Part shown: piece after piece, positions 3,419-9,350 of the stretch | Layout of the letters: every line of letters starts with the position of its first letter | Position numbering within the stretch: the stretch's first letter is position 1 | Source: Escherichia phage P896 | Sequence record: OL451225.1 | Strand: one strand, 5' to 3' | Length of the DNA: 64,000 nt | The notes under the pieces: model-generated | The model's input: the letters and a program-made list of their open reading frames with translations, nothing else | Told to the model about the DNA's origin: nothing | Database searches by the model: none | Program-made: the position numbers and the translations under genes

Positions 3419-3502
3419 TATATTTTTCCTTATCAATTCATATTGTTTGTATGTTAATTATATCATATTGGTTTAAAGCATAAATACAAGAAAGGAGGAT
3501 GT

Positions 3503-3700
3503 ATGCTCAAACTATCTAGTCTAATTCAAGCCATCAAAGGCAGTCGTAAGCGAACGATTCTGGTCCTTTCGATACTCTGTTTTGTTCTACTCTGGAATTT
3601 CATTGTTGTCCCTATTGCATTGGCACATGGTGTTATATTGCCAGTCGTCGCGCTCGAATCAGTTGTAGATGTTTCACTGGCATTAATCGGCCTTATATAA
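3503..3700 (+). CDS. Small hydrophobic protein (65 aa), plus strand
   Basis: Strong RBS AAGGAGG 7 nt upstream of ATG; two predicted TM segments; only plus-strand ORF with good start signals in this interval. Confidence 0.35.
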   Translation: MLKLSSLIQAIKGSRKRTILVLSILCFVLLWNFIVVPIALAHGVILPVVALESVVDVSLALIGLI

Positions 3701-3808
3701 ATGGAACTTACTGGTTGTGCCTATCGCTGCAACACAAGGGGTGCACTTACCCCAGGTCACAATAGAACATATTCATTCCATCATCGGTTACTTTACCGGA
3801 ATCCCTTC

Positions 3809-4837
3809 CTAAACTTTTGCGTACTTCGAAAGTCGCATTCTCGCCATCAATCCTTGAGCAACGTTATCGGCCATATATGATTCGATTTGTTCAGGGGTTG
3901 CCCCTTCTGATTTAACCATCTCATTTATGTCTTTCGTATGCCATGGTGCATTGTCCCAGAACATAACAGCTTCGCCAGCTTCAACGAGCTTCTTCATACG
4001 TTTAATCGTATCCGGATGTCTTGGCTCGTTGTCCATTACCCATACTCTTGTTTCAGCATAAGGAACAGCTTCCAATGCCAATGTGCCACCGGTTATCGCA
4101 ATGCTGTTAGGGATAAACAAACTATCAATTGGACCTTCCATTACCCATACGCGTTTACGCTCATCAATCTTGTCTACTCCATAGACTTTGGAAGCTTCTG
4201 GGTGAGCTTTGATTGTGATATATTTTTGTGGTGCATCTTTGCGAAGAGCTCGTCCTTGGAAAGATTCGATTTCTTTTTTGCCGTTGAAGATAGGAATAAC
4301 CAAGCGTGGTTCATTCGTTTCATTCTTATACGTCCCAGGATTGACGGAGTTAACTAATGCAGGCCATTTGTTTGTAAACCATAACCGGTTCCAAACATTG
4401 CTAGGAATACACCGACTTTTTACATACTTAATTATCGGATGTGCTTCTGGTAAAGTATCGAGTCTTTCACAAAAAGCAAGCTGCTCGATAACCGGAGTTT
4501 TTTCTGGTTCTTTCGGAGTTTCTGCAACTTCATTGCGCTGTCTGCCAAAGGCATTCTCCTTATACTTCTCAACCATATATTCCCGGTGTAAATCCGGCTC
4601 AAACTCTTTTATGTATTTGCTTATATGCGTGGAGTAGTCACAGTTAAAACATTTCACGTAAACCGCGCCATCAGACGGATTGGTATACGCCCAGAATCTG
4701 GCTTTATGTGAATCTTTCTGGGAGTCGCCACAAACTTTACATCTGCAGTTTGCCTTAAATGTGCTCCCGGTGACTTCTCTATAACGTGGTTGATACGATA
4801 AAGCTCTGATTGCAAATTCTCTATCAATATATGACAT
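3809..4837 (-). CDS. 61: DNA primase gp61
   Basis: 342 aa (same as T4 gp61); N-terminal Cys4 zinc ribbon (CRCKVCGD...CFNC), TOPRIM-like core. Confidence 0.93.
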   Translation of the reverse strand: MSYIDREFAIRALSYQPRYREVTGSTFKANCRCKVCGDSQKDSHKARFWAYTNPSDGAVYVKCFNCDYSTHISKYIKEFEPDLHREYMVEKYKENAFGRQRNEVAETPKEPEKTPVIEQLAFCERLDTLPEAHPIIKYVKSRCIPSNVWNRLWFTNKWPALVNSVNPGTYKNETNEPRLVIPIFNGKKEIESFQGRALRKDAPQKYITIKAHPEASKVYGVDKIDERKRVWVMEGPIDSLFIPNSIAITGGTLALEAVPYAETRVWVMDNEPRHPDTIKRMKKLVEAGEAVMFWDNAPWHTKDINEMVKSEGATPEQIESYMADNVAQGLMARMRLSKYAKV

Positions 4838-4869
4838 AGTTTCCTCATTTCAATGGCCCCGAAGGACCA

Positions 4870-5037
4870 TTATACTGTAGGTTTATCGTCTTTGTTCTTA
4901 CGCTTTTTTGATGGGATTTGTTCAGGGCCTTTATTGACAACTGCCCCGGAAGTGGTACCTGTTGTGATATTAGTTGGGTTTCCACCTGCATCACCTGCAA
5001 CCATATCTTCGTTGATAAAATCTTTGAATGTTTTCAT
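4870..5037 (-). CDS. Small protein (55 aa) with internal-protein-like N-terminus MKTFKDFINE
   Basis: Own translation; RBS GGGGG upstream; below the ORF-track length cutoff. Confidence 0.4.
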   Translation of the reverse strand: MKTFKDFINEDMVAGDAGGNPTNITTGTTSGAVVNKGPEQIPSKKRKNKDDKPTV

Positions 5038-5056
5038 AACACCCCCTTTCCGCTAT

Positions 5057-5248
5057 TTATACAACAAAGATAGCTTTATCACCATTTGCATCAGTCACTT
5101 CATAAGTGTCTTCATGATACAACGGAATAATCCAGGTAACACCATCATCAGCGATAACATGGATTGCTTCTTGGTCTTGCGACACGATTTCATATTCTTC
5201 AAAAAGCTGGAAGACCGAAATCTTAGAGCCCGTACACATTGCACTCAT
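5057..5248 (-). CDS. Hypothetical protein (63 aa)
   Basis: ORF track. Confidence 0.4.
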   Translation of the reverse strand: MSAMCTGSKISVFQLFEEYEIVSQDQEAIHVIADDGVTWIIPLYHEDTYEVTDANGDKAIFVV

Positions 5249-5444
5249 ATTGTTCCCTTCTTTTAATCAATTGACGATGTGCCTTTTTAAGTTTACGAAT
5301 CTGACGTTTAGTCGGTCGCGCAACGTAAGCTTGTGTAGTTACTCGTCCAAAAACACCATACTTAGGCGAAGGAGTATCAATAAAGACTTCCCACTGGCAA
5401 GAGTAACTATATATTGCTTTAGAGAATTGGGTCAAAACAAACAT
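5223..5444 (-). CDS. Hypothetical basic protein (73 aa)
   Basis: ORF track; start in TAATATG junction copied from the upstream paralog junction. Confidence 0.45.
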   Translation of the reverse strand: MFVLTQFSKAIYSYSCQWEVFIDTPSPKYGVFGRVTTQAYVARPTKRQIRKLKKAHRQLIKRREQYECNVYGL

Positions 5445-5445
5445 A

Positions 5446-5805
5446 TTAACCTCGCTTCATGAAGGCATTAAAAATCTGGTCATCAATATCAGTAGGCGGT
5501 TCTTGAGCTTTGACCCAAGCCCCTTCCAGAATGTCATTTGCTTCAGTAGATATCATGACCCCAATTTCAGGGTTTCCGGTTATCCAGGCTGCACAATCGC
5601 GGACATTCTTTTTATCAAATGGATAACCACGATTATCTTCACAAGGCCCATTCATTGTCATAAATGAACGAGCCTTTATGATAACATCATCTTTAACGAT
5701 AATATAACCAATCGCCTGATTAAACCGTGGCTCACGAAATTCATAATGGGCATTACCATCATTATTGCTCGCCAGTTCAAAATTCAGAAAATTATAATAA
5801 CTCAT
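5446..5805 (-). CDS. Hypothetical protein (119 aa), paralog family ending DDQIFNAFMKRG
   Basis: C-terminal 13 aa and ~45 nt junction near-identical to 5807..6241. Confidence 0.6.
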   Translation of the reverse strand: MSYYNFLNFELASNNDGNAHYEFREPRFNQAIGYIIVKDDVIIKARSFMTMNGPCEDNRGYPFDKKNVRDCAAWITGNPEIGVMISTEANDILEGAWVKAQEPPTDIDDQIFNAFMKRG

Positions 5806-5806
5806 A

Positions 5807-6241
5807 TTAATCTCGCTTCATGAAAGCATTAAAAATCTGGTCATCAACTGAATATACAGGGGTTTCCAGAAGTTTCAAAAGACTGTTTTTGATGTACTTA
5901 CCCGGGATACCCTTAACAATACTGTCATTCAACTCATTATCAGGGTTGATGTCTTTAAATTCAAACCCGTCAAACTCAACCTTGTCAGGAATACCGTCAG
6001 CGAAAAAATAAACCAATTGGTGCATTGTATTGCGCGAAAATAATTTAGACTTGACCGCAATAAGTTCTTGCCAATGGTTTAATTCTTTGTTAAGAAGTTT
6101 ATGAGCAAACGTAATTCTATTATCACTATCAACAAGAAAATAACCCAGGTATTGAATCTCGTCGCTCCAAAACACCCTGTATGCCTGCGCATTTGGATTT
6201 TTACAACGAAGTTTTTTGATAACCAAATTTCTGTTAATCAT
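5807..6241 (-). CDS. Hypothetical protein (144 aa), paralog family ending DDQIFNAFMKRD
   Basis: Start set at MINRNL (TAAAATG coupling to sp); shared C-terminus with 5446..5805. Confidence 0.55.
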   Translation of the reverse strand: MINRNLVIKKLRCKNPNAQAYRVFWSDEIQYLGYFLVDSDNRITFAHKLLNKELNHWQELIAVKSKLFSRNTMHQLVYFFADGIPDKVEFDGFEFKDINPDNELNDSIVKGIPGKYIKNSLLKLLETPVYSVDDQIFNAFMKRD

Positions 6242-6242
6242 T

Positions 6243-6536
6243 TTATTCACCTGTAACCCATTGAACAATTTTGCTATTGTCAAATGAAGCATCGCAATAC
6301 AGAATATAGTTATACTGCATAACGTCACCAGAAGACAATTGGTCAGATACTTCTTTAACCATATCAGGGCGGTCACGTTTGGTTATGTTCATGATATCAG
6401 CACGAATCTGGGTTTCAACTTCAGATTGCTCTGCTGTCATAGACCATTCACAAAGGTTTTTATCAAGCCCAGCAGTAACTGGAGCTGTACCACATGATGC
6501 TACGGTAAGAATTGCTGCAATAATTAACTTTTTCAT
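6243..6536 (-). CDS. sp: Spackle (Sp) periplasmic superinfection-exclusion protein
   Basis: 97 aa; signal peptide; LCEWSMTA...VETQI...DIMNI.KRDRP...MQYNY.LYCD matches recalled T4 Sp (61.3). Confidence 0.8.
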   Translation of the reverse strand: MKKLIIAAILTVASCGTAPVTAGLDKNLCEWSMTAEQSEVETQIRADIMNITKRDRPDMVKEVSDQLSSGDVMQYNYILYCDASFDNSKIVQWVTGE

Positions 6537-6600
6537 AATGTTCTCCTCAGTAGTTGATATGGATAATATACTGCATTATCCCTTTGATGTAAACTGTTAT
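6537..6600 (-). promoter_or_regulatory. T4-type early promoter + conserved leader (family A)
   Basis: Minus strand GTTTACA...TATATTATCC...ACTACTGAGGAGAA-ATG. Confidence 0.6.
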
Positions 6601-6800
6601 TTTTCGTTAGAACGATAATCACATTCAAAAACTTTATTGTCATTAACAAAGGCTTTAACCAGCGCATTATTCACTTCTGCATACTGCACTGTAACCCATT
6701 CAATCATATTTTTGTCACTGACATCCAGCGCGGTTTCTTTGGTAAACATATTACCATTTTCAAACCAACCAATAAACAATACGTTCTCTAATTTATACAT
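6597..6800 (-). CDS. dmd: Dmd antitoxin (discriminator of mRNA degradation, anti-RnlA/LsoA)
   Basis: 67 aa; GWFENGNMFTKE...QYAEVNNALVKAF.ND.KV.E.D matches recalled T4 Dmd (61.5). Confidence 0.8.
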   Translation of the reverse strand: MYKLENVLFIGWFENGNMFTKETALDVSDKNMIEWVTVQYAEVNNALVKAFVNDNKVFECDYRSNEK

Positions 6801-7118
6801 TTAGATTTCCTCACAAAACGCCCAGGCAGCGTGATAAACTGTTGCGCCTTTAGTATCATTTAAACAAACCACGTCAACAGGTGCAATCACACGATAAAGA
6901 CGGGGTTCTCCTCCATATGAGCGAGCTGCTCTTCCTGCATAGATACGCGCCAAACCAATATCTTCAGTAAAAAACACACGCCCTAAATTTTTCTTACGCC
7001 CAACTTCTGACAGAACACCAGTTGCATCAGGAGGACAAAGCATATTTTGGATTCCAGCATTAGAGCTTGACCCATGATAATAAACTTTGTATTCTGCCTT
7101 GCAATCAATGGTTTTCAT
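6801..7118 (-). CDS. Small protein (105 aa) with diphtheria-toxin/PARP-like NAD-binding motif (putative ADP-ribosyltransferase-fold)
   Basis: VYYHGSSS motif (cf. SYHGT of DT, GYHGT of exotoxin A) followed by aromatic-x9-Y (FFTEDIGLARIY); preceded by family A promoter. Confidence 0.45.
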   Translation of the reverse strand: MKTIDCKAEYKVYYHGSSSNAGIQNMLCPPDATGVLSEVGRKKNLGRVFFTEDIGLARIYAGRAARSYGGEPRLYRVIAPVDVVCLNDTKGATVYHAAWAFCEEI

Positions 7119-7186
7119 TTTATTCTCCAGTAGTTGATAGGGTCATTATAACATAAGAAAAAGGGGCTGTAAGCCCCTTTGTTCAC
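7119..7186 (-). promoter_or_regulatory. Terminator hairpin + early promoter/leader (family A variant)
   Basis: GGGGCT-GTAA-AGCCCC hairpin then CAGTAGTTGATAGGG leader. Confidence 0.5.
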
Positions 7187-7489
7187 TTACGCCAACTCAT
7201 AGTTGTGCATAGTCAGACAACGAATTTTCCCAGTAGTTGGGTGCATAACAGTCACACTAATTGTGTAATCATCGCACACGTTAACAAAAGGTTCAGCGAT
7301 AACATATACTGCCCCGCCTGCAAGCAGATACTCACGAAGAGAGCTGCGAACAGATGAAGGTTGAACATCGCTTTTGAGCTTTATTAATTTACCAGTTTGA
7401 ATGCCTGATGCGATAAGAGCAGCACAGTTTTCATCACGGCGAGCGAATTGTCCAAAATAGTAACGATTCATATCGGTTTGATTAAACAT
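7187..7489 (-). CDS. Hypothetical protein (100 aa)
   Basis: ORF track; family B promoter upstream. Confidence 0.55.
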   Translation of the reverse strand: MFNQTDMNRYYFGQFARRDENCAALIASGIQTGKLIKLKSDVQPSSVRSSLREYLLAGGAVYVIAEPFVNVCDDYTISVTVMHPTTGKIRCLTMHNYELA

Positions 7490-7567
7490 ATGGTTTTCCT
7501 TTTAACAGTTGGTTTATTGTGTAACTCAGTATGGAATCATTATGTCCTAAGACAAGGGGCTTGTACA
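7490..7567 (-). promoter_or_regulatory. T4-type early promoter + conserved leader (family B)
   Basis: Minus strand GTGTACA...CATAATGATTCCATACTGAGTTACAC...ATG. Confidence 0.6.
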
Positions 7568-7816
7568 CTATTTTAATTCATTAATTAAATGAAAATCTTG
7601 TGCATTGAAAGTAATGAAAAAATAATCATTCCCTTCAACTGAAGCATGACAGGCAACACTACACCAGCGCCTTGCTCTGTTCAAGGAGCAATCCAAAATT
7701 TTAAAAGGCTTCAGACCAACAATGGCAGCTGTTCTTTTATTATGCTCACAAATATCAGCATACTTTTGGAGAGCTTCTTCAGATTTGAACTGGTAATGCA
7801 CATTAACTAATAACAT
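7568..7816 (-). CDS. Hypothetical protein (82 aa), Cys-containing
   Basis: ORF track; family A promoter upstream. Confidence 0.55.
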   Translation of the reverse strand: MLLVNVHYQFKSEEALQKYADICEHNKRTAAIVGLKPFKILDCSLNRARRWCSVACHASVEGNDYFFITFNAQDFHLINELK

Positions 7817-7906
7817 TTTATTATCCTCATCAGTAGTTGATGGGATAATAGTACACCCTTTTTATGAGGATGTAAACCCCTAAATGAAAAAAGGTCCACC
7901 CGAAGG
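7817..7906 (-). promoter_or_regulatory. Terminator hairpin (after gene 41) + early promoter/leader (family A)
   Basis: AAAGGTCCACCCGAAGGGTCTTT hairpin; GTTTACATCCTCAT...TATTATCCCATCAACTACTGATGAGGA. Confidence 0.65.
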
Positions 7907-7910
7907 GTCT

Positions 7911-9350
7911 TTAGAATTTCATTTGAGCAGCAAGGTCGTCCAGGTCGCTCCTGTTGACCCTGGTTTGTCTATTCATTTCAGCCTGGCGATTCATCTCACC
8001 GGTGGCTTCTTTAACCGTAGGGCCTTGTTTAGGAGCTGAATCATCATCAACCTCGTACCAGCGCTGATTACCTTTCTTAACACCCATCTTGAATTTATTA
8101 TAGTAGTTCTTATCGCCATAACGAGACTTAAGCTGTTTGATTAACTGCAGACCCATTTGAGCGAATTCTTCAGTCTCAACAACACCCAACATAAAGTCGG
8201 CCGTGTGAGCAATACCAAAGGATTCTGCGATGTCAGCCATATCAATCTCAGCTGCAACGTTCGCGCCCCTGGTTGTCTGTGCTGCAGTCCACAGGACCAC
8301 ATTTTTCTCAACAGCCAGACCACGAAGTTCTTCTGCAACCATCTTAATCAGGCCGTAACTGTTTTCGGTAAACGTTTTCAGTCTTGAGCTTGCACAGATT
8401 GCCAGGTAGTCAACAATAATCACATCCGGCACAAACCCTTGCTTCAGTTTGTATTCATTCAATAATGCACGGAAGGTATCTGCATGAGCACCGCCAGTTG
8501 GATATTGTTTTATCTTCAGAGTCCCAAGAGTCCCTGATGCCCGCCATTTTTCCATCTTAGCTTTGTATTCTGCCCATGATATATGACCTTCATCAATATC
8601 ATCCAGAGACACATCCAGCAAGTTGGCATCAATACGTTTGGCACATACTTCTTCAGCCATTTCCATGCTTATATAAAGCACGTTATGACCAGTCTGAAGA
8701 TAGTCGGCCGCTAACGAACAAAGTCCCAGAGATTTCCCGACGTTGGTCCCGGCCAGTAAAACGTTCTCTGTGCCATACTCAACCCCACCCTTTGTGATTT
8801 TATTCAGGATGTTAATACGGAACGGAACCTTCTTCGATTTGTTCAGATAAGTCTGGAATCGAGCCTCGTAATCGTTTAACCAGTCATGGCCGAGGGCAGA
8901 ATCAAAACAGATGGACAATGCATCACGCATGATGTCAGGGATAGCACCGATATCCGGGATTCGTTTATCACGTTTATCTTTCGGAAGTTCGGCATTACTC
9001 TGGATTTCGATAATCCTGGATGTGGCATTGAACATCGCAGATTTCTGCACATACTTCTCGGTTTCTCTAACCAACCATTCTTGGTCTTCTGGAGTATCGG
9101 CCAGGACTCCTAAGAGTTTCTTTGTGCCTTCATATTCGACTTCAGAAAGGTCAGAACTGTCGAGCGCGATATCAAGTGCAGTCTTAGTTGGTACCGCTTG
9201 ATATTCTTTTACGTGTTCGTTAATCGTATTAAAAAGAGTCTTCGCGGGACCCTTTTCAAAATATGTGTTATTCAGATACGGCCAGACTTTAACAAAATAT
9301 TCCTTGTTAAAGAGTAGCTGGGATAAAATAGTTTCTACCACTTCCACCAC
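7911..9350 (-). CDS. 41: Replicative DNA helicase gp41 (DnaB-like)
   Basis: 479 aa; Walker A GTNVGKSLGL, RecA-like core; position between 61-region and 40/uvsX as in T4. Confidence 0.93.
   Translation of the reverse strand: MVEVVETILSQLLFNKEYFVKVWPYLNNTYFEKGPAKTLFNTINEHVKEYQAVPTKTALDIALDSSDLSEVEYEGTKKLLGVLADTPEDQEWLVRETEKYVQKSAMFNATSRIIEIQSNAELPKDKRDKRIPDIGAIPDIMRDALSICFDSALGHDWLNDYEARFQTYLNKSKKVPFRINILNKITKGGVEYGTENVLLAGTNVGKSLGLCSLAADYLQTGHNVLYISMEMAEEVCAKRIDANLLDVSLDDIDEGHISWAEYKAKMEKWRASGTLGTLKIKQYPTGGAHADTFRALLNEYKLKQGFVPDVIIVDYLAICASSRLKTFTENSYGLIKMVAEELRGLAVEKNVVLWTAAQTTRGANVAAEIDMADIAESFGIAHTADFMLGVVETEEFAQMGLQLIKQLKSRYGDKNYYNKFKMGVKKGNQRWYEVDDDSAPKQGPTVKEATGEMNRQAEMNRQTRVNRSDLDDLAAQMKF

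Follow-up and report, generated by a model that had tools for sequence, protein, structure and literature searches.

Gene content of the 61-41 interval

Our analysis concerns the interval between genes 61 and 41 of Escherichia phage P896 (sequence record OL451225.1), of which a stretch of 64,000 nucleotides, hereafter the window, was studied. Between gene 61 (3809-4837) and gene 41 (7911-9350) exactly ten open reading frames (ORFs) were counted, all on the minus strand and spanning 3.07 kb (table 1), whereas the same interval in T4 comprises ~1.65 kb with five genes. In T-even phages this interval has been described by Srikant et al. as an 'anti-TA island' (TA, toxin-antitoxin) containing dmd, tifA and adfA (2022, PMC9391042), and genes of the T4 island are also attributed to LeRoux et al. 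2022, going by the citation in PMC11257639. We suggest that the interval in the window is probably the Gaprivervirus (SP18-type) version of this anti-toxin island, composed of independent small inhibitors and one enzyme.

Table 1. Features of the 61-41 interval of phage P896, given in window positions (aa, amino acids; nt, nucleotides; ART, ADP-ribosyltransferase; UTR, untranslated region; PeSL, terminator stem-loop plus early promoter).
Feature	Position	Strand	Description
gp61.1 ortholog	4870-5037	-	55 aa; 86% identity to T4 gp61.1; phrog_1823
63-aa gene	5057-5248	-	phrog_3249; common to RB69-like phages
TifA (T4 gp61.4) homolog	5223-5444	-	73 aa; Pfam DUF7279 72.2 bits, cut-off 24.5
Direct repeat, copy 1	5442-5486	-	45 nt; shared tail, stop codon, Shine-Dalgarno sequence and ATG of the next gene
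119-aa gene, putatively AdfA-related	5446-5805	-	phrog_4122; one module and AdfA C-terminal tail
Direct repeat, copy 2	5803-5847	-	45 nt; 96% identity to copy 1, 361 nt away
146-aa gene, putatively AdfA-related	5807-6247	-	phrog_8539; one beta-rich domain and long disordered C-terminal tail (predicted)
sp (spackle)	6243-6536	-	periplasmic superinfection-exclusion protein; Pfam T4_Spackle (PF25676) 144 bits, above cut-off
Early-promoter cassette upstream of sp	6537-6596	-	TTTACA-17-TATATT 6593-6565; UTR motif ATCAACTACTGAGGA 6558-6544
dmd	6597-6800	-	antitoxin mimic against RnlA/LsoA; Pfam PF17587 72.4 bits, cut-off 27
ART-fold protein	6801-7118	-	105 aa; phrog_2110; first gene of the ART-dmd operon
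PeSL-type cassette upstream of the ART gene	7119-7186	-	CTTACA-17-TATAAT 7173-7145; UTR motif 7138-7124
Genus-restricted orphan	7187-7489	-	100 aa; phrog_17014; 21 phage records, all Gaprivervirus, at least 94% identity
goF-like gene	7568-7816	-	82 aa; phrog_2980, E 4e-20; counterpart of the N-terminal half of T4 goF
Early-promoter cassette between gene 41 and the goF-like gene	7817-7910	-	TTTACA-17-TACTAT 7876-7848; UTR motif 7841-7827

The window shares with the T4 island (61.1, adfA/61.2, sp, tifA/61.4 and dmd) the flanking genes, the orientation and early transcription. Three of its genes are orthologs of 61.1, sp and dmd, another is homologous to tifA, and the adfA slot is filled by AdfA-related genes. 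The window differs in having ten genes instead of five, in the position of the tifA homolog away from dmd, and in the apparent replacement of the 208-aa AdfA by two one-module relatives, and it adds to the T4 layout an ADP-ribosyltransferase (ART) gene upstream of dmd, the goF-like gene, the orphan found only in the genus, and the 63-aa gene. An earlier note made from the letters of the window alone had listed at least ten ORFs here and considered the extra ones as not expected from T4. When every ORF was compared to the complete T4 genome by tblastn, three (the 63-aa gene, the ART gene and the orphan) had no counterpart at E <0.4, whereas two of the supposed additions turned out to be homologs of 61.4 (tifA) and 61.1. 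All ten ORFs matched a PHROG family, and similarities to 61.2 and 61.4 are already annotated in the GenBank record of phage VR25. An Rfam search of the interval (E up to 0.1) gave no match.

Over its entire length the region 4700-8000 has 96.8% DNA identity to Shigella phage SP18 (Gaprivervirus, Tevenvirinae), and it is 95-97% identical to ~15 other coliphages, with the gene order kept at identities of at least 95%. The annotation of SP18 lists the identical ten genes in identical order, and parts of the island layout recur in RB69-like phages (Mosigvirus Bas46). The locus is thus expanded when compared to T4, as the earlier note had stated, but its layout is not unusual among its relatives. 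Gene-level presence and absence are the sole differences between the window and the genomes of Gaprivervirus (SP18, VR7/VR25 and others). The goF-like gene is missing from VR25, which has two additional genes between dmd and sp; EAWsc9 is without the orphan and the goF-like and TifA-like genes; and phage 212 and EAWsc9 each encode one extra 113-aa gene between dmd and sp. The ratio of nonsynonymous to synonymous substitution rates (dN/dS) was below 1 in all nine genes tested, with values against VR25 of 0.01-0.33 in eight genes and 0.40 in the ART gene. The synonymous divergence (dS) from VR25 differs strongly from gene to gene, ranging from 0.12 to 1.35. Such gene-to-gene divergence, together with whole-gene differences between phages of one genus at this locus, is the mosaic pattern that would be expected of cassette exchange.

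Sp, Dmd and the TifA homolog

The calls of sp and dmd in the earlier note were right. Sp is 65% identical to T4 Sp and its N-terminus, MKKLIIAAILTVASCG, is signal or lipobox-like, while Dmd is 54% identical to its T4 counterpart. The TifA homolog scored almost equally to T4 TifA on the DUF7279 model (72.2 and 72.7 bits, respectively). Its tblastn match in the T4 genome falls on 61.4 (E 7e-10), and the pairwise identity is 39% (E 1e-13). A Pro-Thr (PT) motif followed by a basic cluster has been described as the conserved hallmark of TifA (Guegler et al., PMC10853763), and the window protein has both in this order, RPTKRQIRKLKK, with a Pro-Thr cap and basic helix in the sequence RPTKRQIRKLKKAHRQLIKRRE. 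Its dN/dS against VR25 is 0.012. T4 tifA lies downstream of dmd in one operon (PMC9391042). Direct adjacency to dmd was not found in the window, where the homolog is located four genes downstream of dmd, past sp and the two AdfA-like genes.

Two genes with an AdfA tail in the adfA slot

Downstream of sp and upstream of 61.1, that is in the adfA slot, the window encodes two proteins of 119 and 146 aa which both carry the C-terminal tail ...[SD][IV]DDQIFNAFM[NK]R[GD]. The last ~14 residues are common to both proteins and T4 AdfA (gp61.2), and in the 146-aa protein the resemblance extends further, with residues 94-145 (~the last 50) aligning to residues 146-207 of T4 AdfA at 35% identity. The earlier note had taken the two genes for paralogs with identical C-termini. 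The common C-terminus was confirmed, but the bodies of the two proteins are not detectably alike, and we rejected a relationship as full-length paralogs after their tail-less similarity was found to be at chance level (27 of 200 shuffles). For the 146-aa ORF two starts can be considered, GTG at 6247, which overlaps the stop codon of sp, or ATG at 6241; the GTG is annotated in SP18 and is supported by homologs without the internal ATG. dN/dS against VR25 is 0.33 for the 119-aa gene and 0.21 for the 146-aa gene.

In order to compare the bodies to AdfA, profiles were aligned by hhalign with the tails removed, and significance was taken from 200 column shuffles. The score against AdfA was 23.9 for the 119-aa family, reached in none of the shuffles, and 21.1 for the 146-aa family, reached in three. 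P values against the AdfA halves ranged from 1e-3 to 7e-3 for the window proteins. AdfA itself appears to consist of two repeats of one module (residues 20-109 versus 119-194, P 0.019); the alignment of each window protein covers a single such module. What we regard as the strongest single piece of evidence for the AdfA relationship comes from an IMG/VR contig (3300010279_000005, our locus L019), which encodes a relative with 46% identity to the 119-aa protein (E 3e-27) that matches HMM (hidden Markov model) positions 129-211 of Pfam AdfA (PF23813) with 31.1 bits and is thereby above the gathering cut-off of 27 bits; T4 AdfA scores 450 bits on the same model. Because of the profile similarity without tails, the alignment to one module and this relative above the Pfam cut-off, both window proteins would appear to be shortened, divergent one-module relatives of AdfA, although by the Pfam criterion they are not members of the family. 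They resemble AdfA in the genomic slot and the last ~14 residues and perhaps, by a weak but above-chance profile similarity, in the body, and differ from it in size and build, since AdfA has 208-219 aa and apparently two modules and the window proteins have one module each. In some phages, as at L019 (3568-3955), a full-length AdfA and a 119-aa one-module relative occur side by side. Where AdfA has its specificity residue (R164H in RB69), the aligned residue is His in the L019 relative, Asp in the window protein and Asn in another relative, according to our own reading of the sequences against the hhalign alignment.

The tail is far more widespread than the bodies that carry it. A tblastn search against GenBank phages recovered it in at least 706 phage records and 885 places, and a pattern scan of IMG/VR, which was far less informative than tblastn, yielded 16 loci. 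Both body families are narrow, with three members found by HMMER for the 146-aa protein among 1.8 billion cluster representatives and eight near-identical sequences found for the 119-aa protein by a word-indexed search. In the 146-aa family the C-terminal ~30 residues, KYIKNSLLKILExPVYSxDDQIFNAFMxRG, are nearly invariant even in members with an overall identity of no more than 30-37%. Across phages the tail codons vary synonymously (GAT/GAC, CAA/CAG, ATT/ATA, GCT/GCC/GCA, TTT/TTC, AGA/CGA) and the peptide stays constant. In the AlphaFold model of the 146-aa protein, residues 1-100 are beta-rich with confidence scores (pLDDT) of 74-89 in blocks of ten residues, and residues 101-146, at ~40, are predicted to be disordered. 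A conserved peptide that is predicted to be disordered and is constrained at the protein level is what one expects of a motif that folds on a partner.

At the DNA level the tail is part of a 45-nt direct repeat, and the junction of tail, stop codon, T and ATG was present throughout the families and phages examined. In JS98-type phages a single tail gene runs straight into the tifA-like start, and therefore the 361-bp unit appears to behave as an insertion/deletion cassette. The repeat DNA probably serves as a recombination joint as well, since it ends in the stop codon, Shine-Dalgarno sequence and ATG, and since relatives with and without the 119-aa gene differ by exactly one repeat unit.

A small ADP-ribosyltransferase-fold protein upstream of dmd

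The 105-aa protein, listed in the earlier note as a DT-like protein (DT, diphtheria toxin) with a YHGS motif, has a genuine ADP-ribosyltransferase fold by its structure model and fold comparison. The AlphaFold model (pLDDT 86.6) had its best Foldseek match to Arr with a probability of 0.99, and further matches to the NAD lobe of Tpt1, AcrIF11 and diphtheria toxin. Fold comparison alone identified the protein: it has no Pfam, NCBIfam or PADLOC match, and its alignment profile found nothing among PDB sequences at E up to 10. The label ADP-ribosyltransferase is given to it in a few GenBank records. H15-G16, F49 and Y60 are invariant and E103 is found in at least 90% of 38 homologs. These residues fit an H-Y-E pattern, so that the DT-like label of the earlier note was sound. 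From the secondary structure of the model we assign them to the motif positions of the H-Y-[EDQ] clade, which are a His on strand 1, an aromatic residue on strand 2 or in the helix after it, and an acidic residue on the last strand. The solved enzymes Tpt1/KptA, Arr and AcrIF11 are all longer than the window protein, which also lacks the RNA-binding lobe of Tpt1.

The family comprises 121 database clusters with 52-99% identity and was detected in 609 phage records, including phages of Klebsiella, Acinetobacter, Aeromonas and Vibrio, but not in T4. dN/dS is 0.40 against VR25 and 0.10 against Bas46, and the protein is 72% identical in amino acids to that of a Klebsiella phage despite saturated synonymous sites. 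Strong purifying selection of this kind would fit a target that is itself conserved better than a rapidly evolving immune protein. Among 185,579 genomes of bacteria and archaea, three loci with 64-70% identity to the phage protein were detected, two on phage-sized contigs of ~170 kb and one on a 3-kb contig; neither a clearly cellular homolog nor an informative bacterial context was found.

In the window the TAA stop codon of the ART gene is directly followed by the ATG of dmd, in Bas46 the two genes overlap by 4 nt, and both are served by one common promoter cassette. Iyer, Burroughs, Anantharaman and Aravind described a 'p0068-like' family of small H-Y-[EDQ] ARTs, which in Escherichia and Shigella phages are likewise located directly upstream of dmd and whose pairing with Dmd extends to Salmonella phages. 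On computational grounds they suggested that the two form an RNA-acting toxin-antitoxin pair (2022, PMC9503650). Going by the published description alone, the window protein fits this family. Our literature search returned no experimental study of an ART beside dmd. Beyond the enterobacterial T-even phages, a small ORF (45-76 aa) often comes directly after the ART gene, its start overlapping the stop codon of the latter (ATGA). Such ORFs just downstream of ART homologs (L024 6315, L025 2487, L027 2788 and L028 2815) encode strongly hydrophobic, membrane-like proteins in three of four cases. None of the four is related to Dmd, which is the picture of a variable partner behind a conserved enzyme.

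Early-promoter cassettes

The three early-promoter cassettes proposed in the earlier note were all recovered, each with a promoter-like site followed by the motif ATCAACTACTG (table 1). Their promoters were compared to the published consensus TTTACW-N17-TAYWAT (PMC4122927) of PeSLs, the combined terminator stem-loop and early promoter architecture of T4-type phages (Arbiol 2010, PMC2839356; Comeau 2014, PMC4122927). The cassette upstream of the ART gene alone has a clear stem-loop, a terminator formed by AAAGGGGCTTACAGCCCCTTT and a T run at 7180-7160 that is fused to the promoter. Like T4-type PeSLs, the window cassettes have consensus-fitting promoters, one of them with a G+C stem-loop, at the borders of variable genes in a hyperplastic region. 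They differ from T4-type PeSLs in that one clear stem-loop only is present and in that all three contain a downstream UTR/ribosome-binding-site motif, ATCAACTACTG. This motif occurs seven times in the window versus 0.02 expected occurrences, and it seems to be a shared 5' leader/ribosome-binding module of the early cassettes of the phage. Its extended form, ATCAACTACTG[AG][GT]GA, is located on the minus strand at 6544, 7124, 7827, 11849, 25010, 38794 and 59168, and at the three sites of the interval the motif lies between the promoter -10 box and the start codon.

Proposed function of the island

Taken as the SP18-type anti-toxin island that we consider likely, the interval would be an early-transcribed array of small, independently acting genes which the PeSL cassettes would divide into three units and allow to swap in and out. 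The goF-like gene and the orphan would form unit 1, the ART-dmd operon unit 2, and sp, the two AdfA-like genes, the TifA-like gene, the 63-aa gene and 61.1 unit 3, which would read into gene 61. Dmd would bind and block RNase toxins of the RnlA/LsoA type, the TifA-like protein would bind ToxN-type RNases and RNA by its PT motif and basic helix, and Sp would block the lysozyme of a superinfecting phage. The AdfA-like proteins would present two different folded recognition domains on one invariant, flexible C-terminal peptide. AdfA binds DarT (PMC11257639), and by analogy the pair may neutralise, through binding, ADP-ribosyltransferase toxins of the DarT type or a related target, with the two proteins widening the range of toxin variants covered; we put forward DarT-type toxins as their target tentatively. 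The 105-aa ART, finally, would use NAD+ to modify a highly conserved target. This reading builds on observed gene identities, homologies, the ART fold, purifying selection, cassettes and variability within the genus, from which we infer every activity and target.

Several results weigh against the island reading or parts of it. On Pfam AdfA the 119-aa protein reaches 20.5 bits, below the cut-off of 27 and by its tail only (HMM positions 198-211), and the 146-aa protein has no match at E up to 1. Foldseek comparison of the 146-aa model to viral structure models (BFVD) returned its own family and a 118-aa protein (E 2e-4), with AdfA not in the top 50, and the bodies of the AdfA-like proteins are, as described above, not significantly similar to each other (27/200). 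Several TifA homologs of other phages inhibit none of the ToxN proteins tested (PMC10853763), and homology is therefore no guarantee of the same target. For the 63-aa gene, the orphan and the goF-like gene no evidence was found for or against an anti-defence role. The earlier note had put forward the additions at this locus as anti-defence candidates, a proposal which is now carried by one TifA-like, two AdfA-like and one ART-fold protein and for those three genes is neither strengthened nor weakened. It is not contradicted by homologs with known, unrelated functions, as we did not find these for the ORFs of the interval.

A different view of the ART gene follows from Iyer et al. (2022), according to whom ART and Dmd would be a phage-borne toxin-antitoxin pair, the ART being toxic and Dmd neutralising it. 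Dmd would then mainly control the phage's own enzyme. The translational coupling in the window and Bas46, the single promoter cassette, the adjacency kept in Gaprivervirus, Mosigvirus and many Escherichia and Shigella phage records, and the published proposal itself (PMC9503650) speak in its favour. However, T4 has Dmd and lacks the ART, and most phages carrying Dmd resemble T4 and, like T4, would lack it too. Dmd (797 records) is confined to enterobacterial T-even phages, whereas the ART (609) is frequent in phages of Klebsiella, Acinetobacter, Aeromonas and Vibrio as well, where the ORF coupled to it is an unrelated small protein (hydrophobic in the Klebsiella-type examples, which are Slopekvirus) or absent. 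The phyletic distributions and the unrelated downstream ORFs weaken an obligate pairing, and Dmd has a proven external target in RnlA/LsoA, as is established knowledge and is stated in the cited papers. We hold such a toxin-antitoxin pair to be rather unlikely.

It is also conceivable that the shared tail has no function as a protein and marks a joint for DNA-level recombination and translation coupling that travels with exchanged cassettes, in which case the 'AdfA-like' genes would be unrelated and would simply have picked up this joint. The 45-nt repeat (96% DNA identity) does carry the Shine-Dalgarno sequence and start codon of the next gene, the 119-aa gene is present or absent among relatives as exactly one repeat unit, and T4 is known to recombine at short homologies (PMC9391042). 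Against this stand the synonymous codon variants of an unchanged peptide across phages, the ~30 nearly invariant C-terminal residues in a 146-aa family that is otherwise down to 30% identity, and the profile similarity of the tail-less bodies to AdfA, and we consider an explanation by DNA alone as improbable, the two roles of the tail not being mutually exclusive. Least probable by far, to the point of being hardly credible, is that the additional small ORFs have no function and represent filler, either decaying or spurious, in a hyperplastic region. They are indeed small, mostly without family annotation and variable in presence within the genus, but dN/dS values of 0.01-0.33 against VR25 in eight of nine genes, with the ART at 0.40 against VR25 and 0.10 against Bas46, the PHROG family of each of the ten ORFs, and the tightly coupled starts and stops with ribosome-binding sites visible in the interval sequence argue otherwise.

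Returning to the anti-toxin island, a more specific elaboration can be offered as speculation, which we rate as doubtful in its entirety. The tail could be a portable docking peptide that brings different recognition domains (full AdfA, the 119-aa module and the 146-aa module, which all end in the same ~14 residues) to one partner. A conserved surface of DarT-type toxins is one conceivable partner, and a factor of the replisome or the host where such toxins act is another. This could amount to a modular anti-toxin toolkit in which the DNA repeat also drives cassette exchange. Separately, the ART might be a minimal enzyme with RNA ends or a conserved host factor as its ADP-ribosylation target, and might join with Dmd in protecting the phage mRNA.

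The locus concept, the ART-Dmd adjacency, the PeSL cassettes and the gene order are already on record. To these we add the placement of the relocated TifA homolog in its Pfam family, the probable assignment of the tail-bearing genes as one-module AdfA relatives, the recognition of the tail as a protein-level, disordered and widely shared motif, and the restriction of the 100-aa gene to the genus. The 61-41 interval has already been the source of three counter-defence proteins, Dmd, TifA and AdfA. While the present results leave the current understanding of what this locus is unchanged, they turn 'hypothetical proteins' of the SP18-type island into specific, testable assignments and provide a candidate list, not a new kind of system. 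The best leads are the AdfA tail and the small ART. A shared tail that is conserved and yet disordered points to a common binding partner and, if it were a docking peptide, would show phages diversifying anti-toxin specificity by module swapping, and the ART, if it has a defined target, would be among the smallest known enzymes of its class.

Other genes of the interval and its surroundings

The 55-aa protein was noted earlier for its likeness to a capsid-targeting sequence, and it is the ortholog of gp61.1. Its N-terminus, MKTFKDFINE, is indeed similar to the capsid-targeting sequences of the T4 internal proteins IPI (MKTFKEFTST) and IPII/IPIII (MKTYQEFIAE). Residues 2-46 are 42% identical to residues 57-101 of T4 gp23 (E 9e-8), a stretch which presumably spans the head-protease cleavage site, and the resemblance holds for T4 gp61.1 as well. 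From its sequence gp61.1 resembles a short version of the N-terminal region of the major capsid protein that undergoes processing. It might be packaged, or it might serve as a decoy, either for capsid-sensing defences or for the head protease. Its dN/dS against VR25 is 0.07. Neither a described function for gp61.1 nor a discussion of its resemblance to gp23 was encountered in our literature search. T4 gene 61.1 lies at 967-1131 of our locus L002.

The 63-aa gene (dN/dS 0.09 against VR25) is 66% identical to a gene at the same relative position in Mosigvirus Bas46. The orphan, with a dN/dS of 0.18 against VR25, is missing in EAWsc9 of the same genus. It has no T4 homolog, no match in plasmids or E. 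coli genomes, and no Pfam, NCBIfam or PADLOC family; a PADLOC hit to LmuC at E 0.04 was treated as noise. The goF-like protein is 33% identical to residues 7-69 of T4 goF and is absent from VR25 and EAWsc9. Its sequence RRWCSVACH resembles the core of a CGNR zinc finger (Pfam zf-CGNR 18.3 bits, below the cut-off of 24), and T4 goF is without those cysteines in the aligned region.

The 113-aa gene of EAWsc9 (1912-2253) and phage 212, an unclassified SP18-like phage (2096-2437), has no counterpart in the window. Residues 34-64 of its product weakly match the C-terminal half of the Dmd model (19 bits, below cut-off), and it may be a second, longer Dmd-like protein. On the other side of gene 61, the 372-bp gap towards gene 56 (3437-3808) contains no minus-strand ORF. 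Inside this gap the plus strand has an ORF for a very hydrophobic protein of 65 aa (3503-3700), at a place where SP18 annotates nothing and where the corresponding interval of T4 is occupied by dam.

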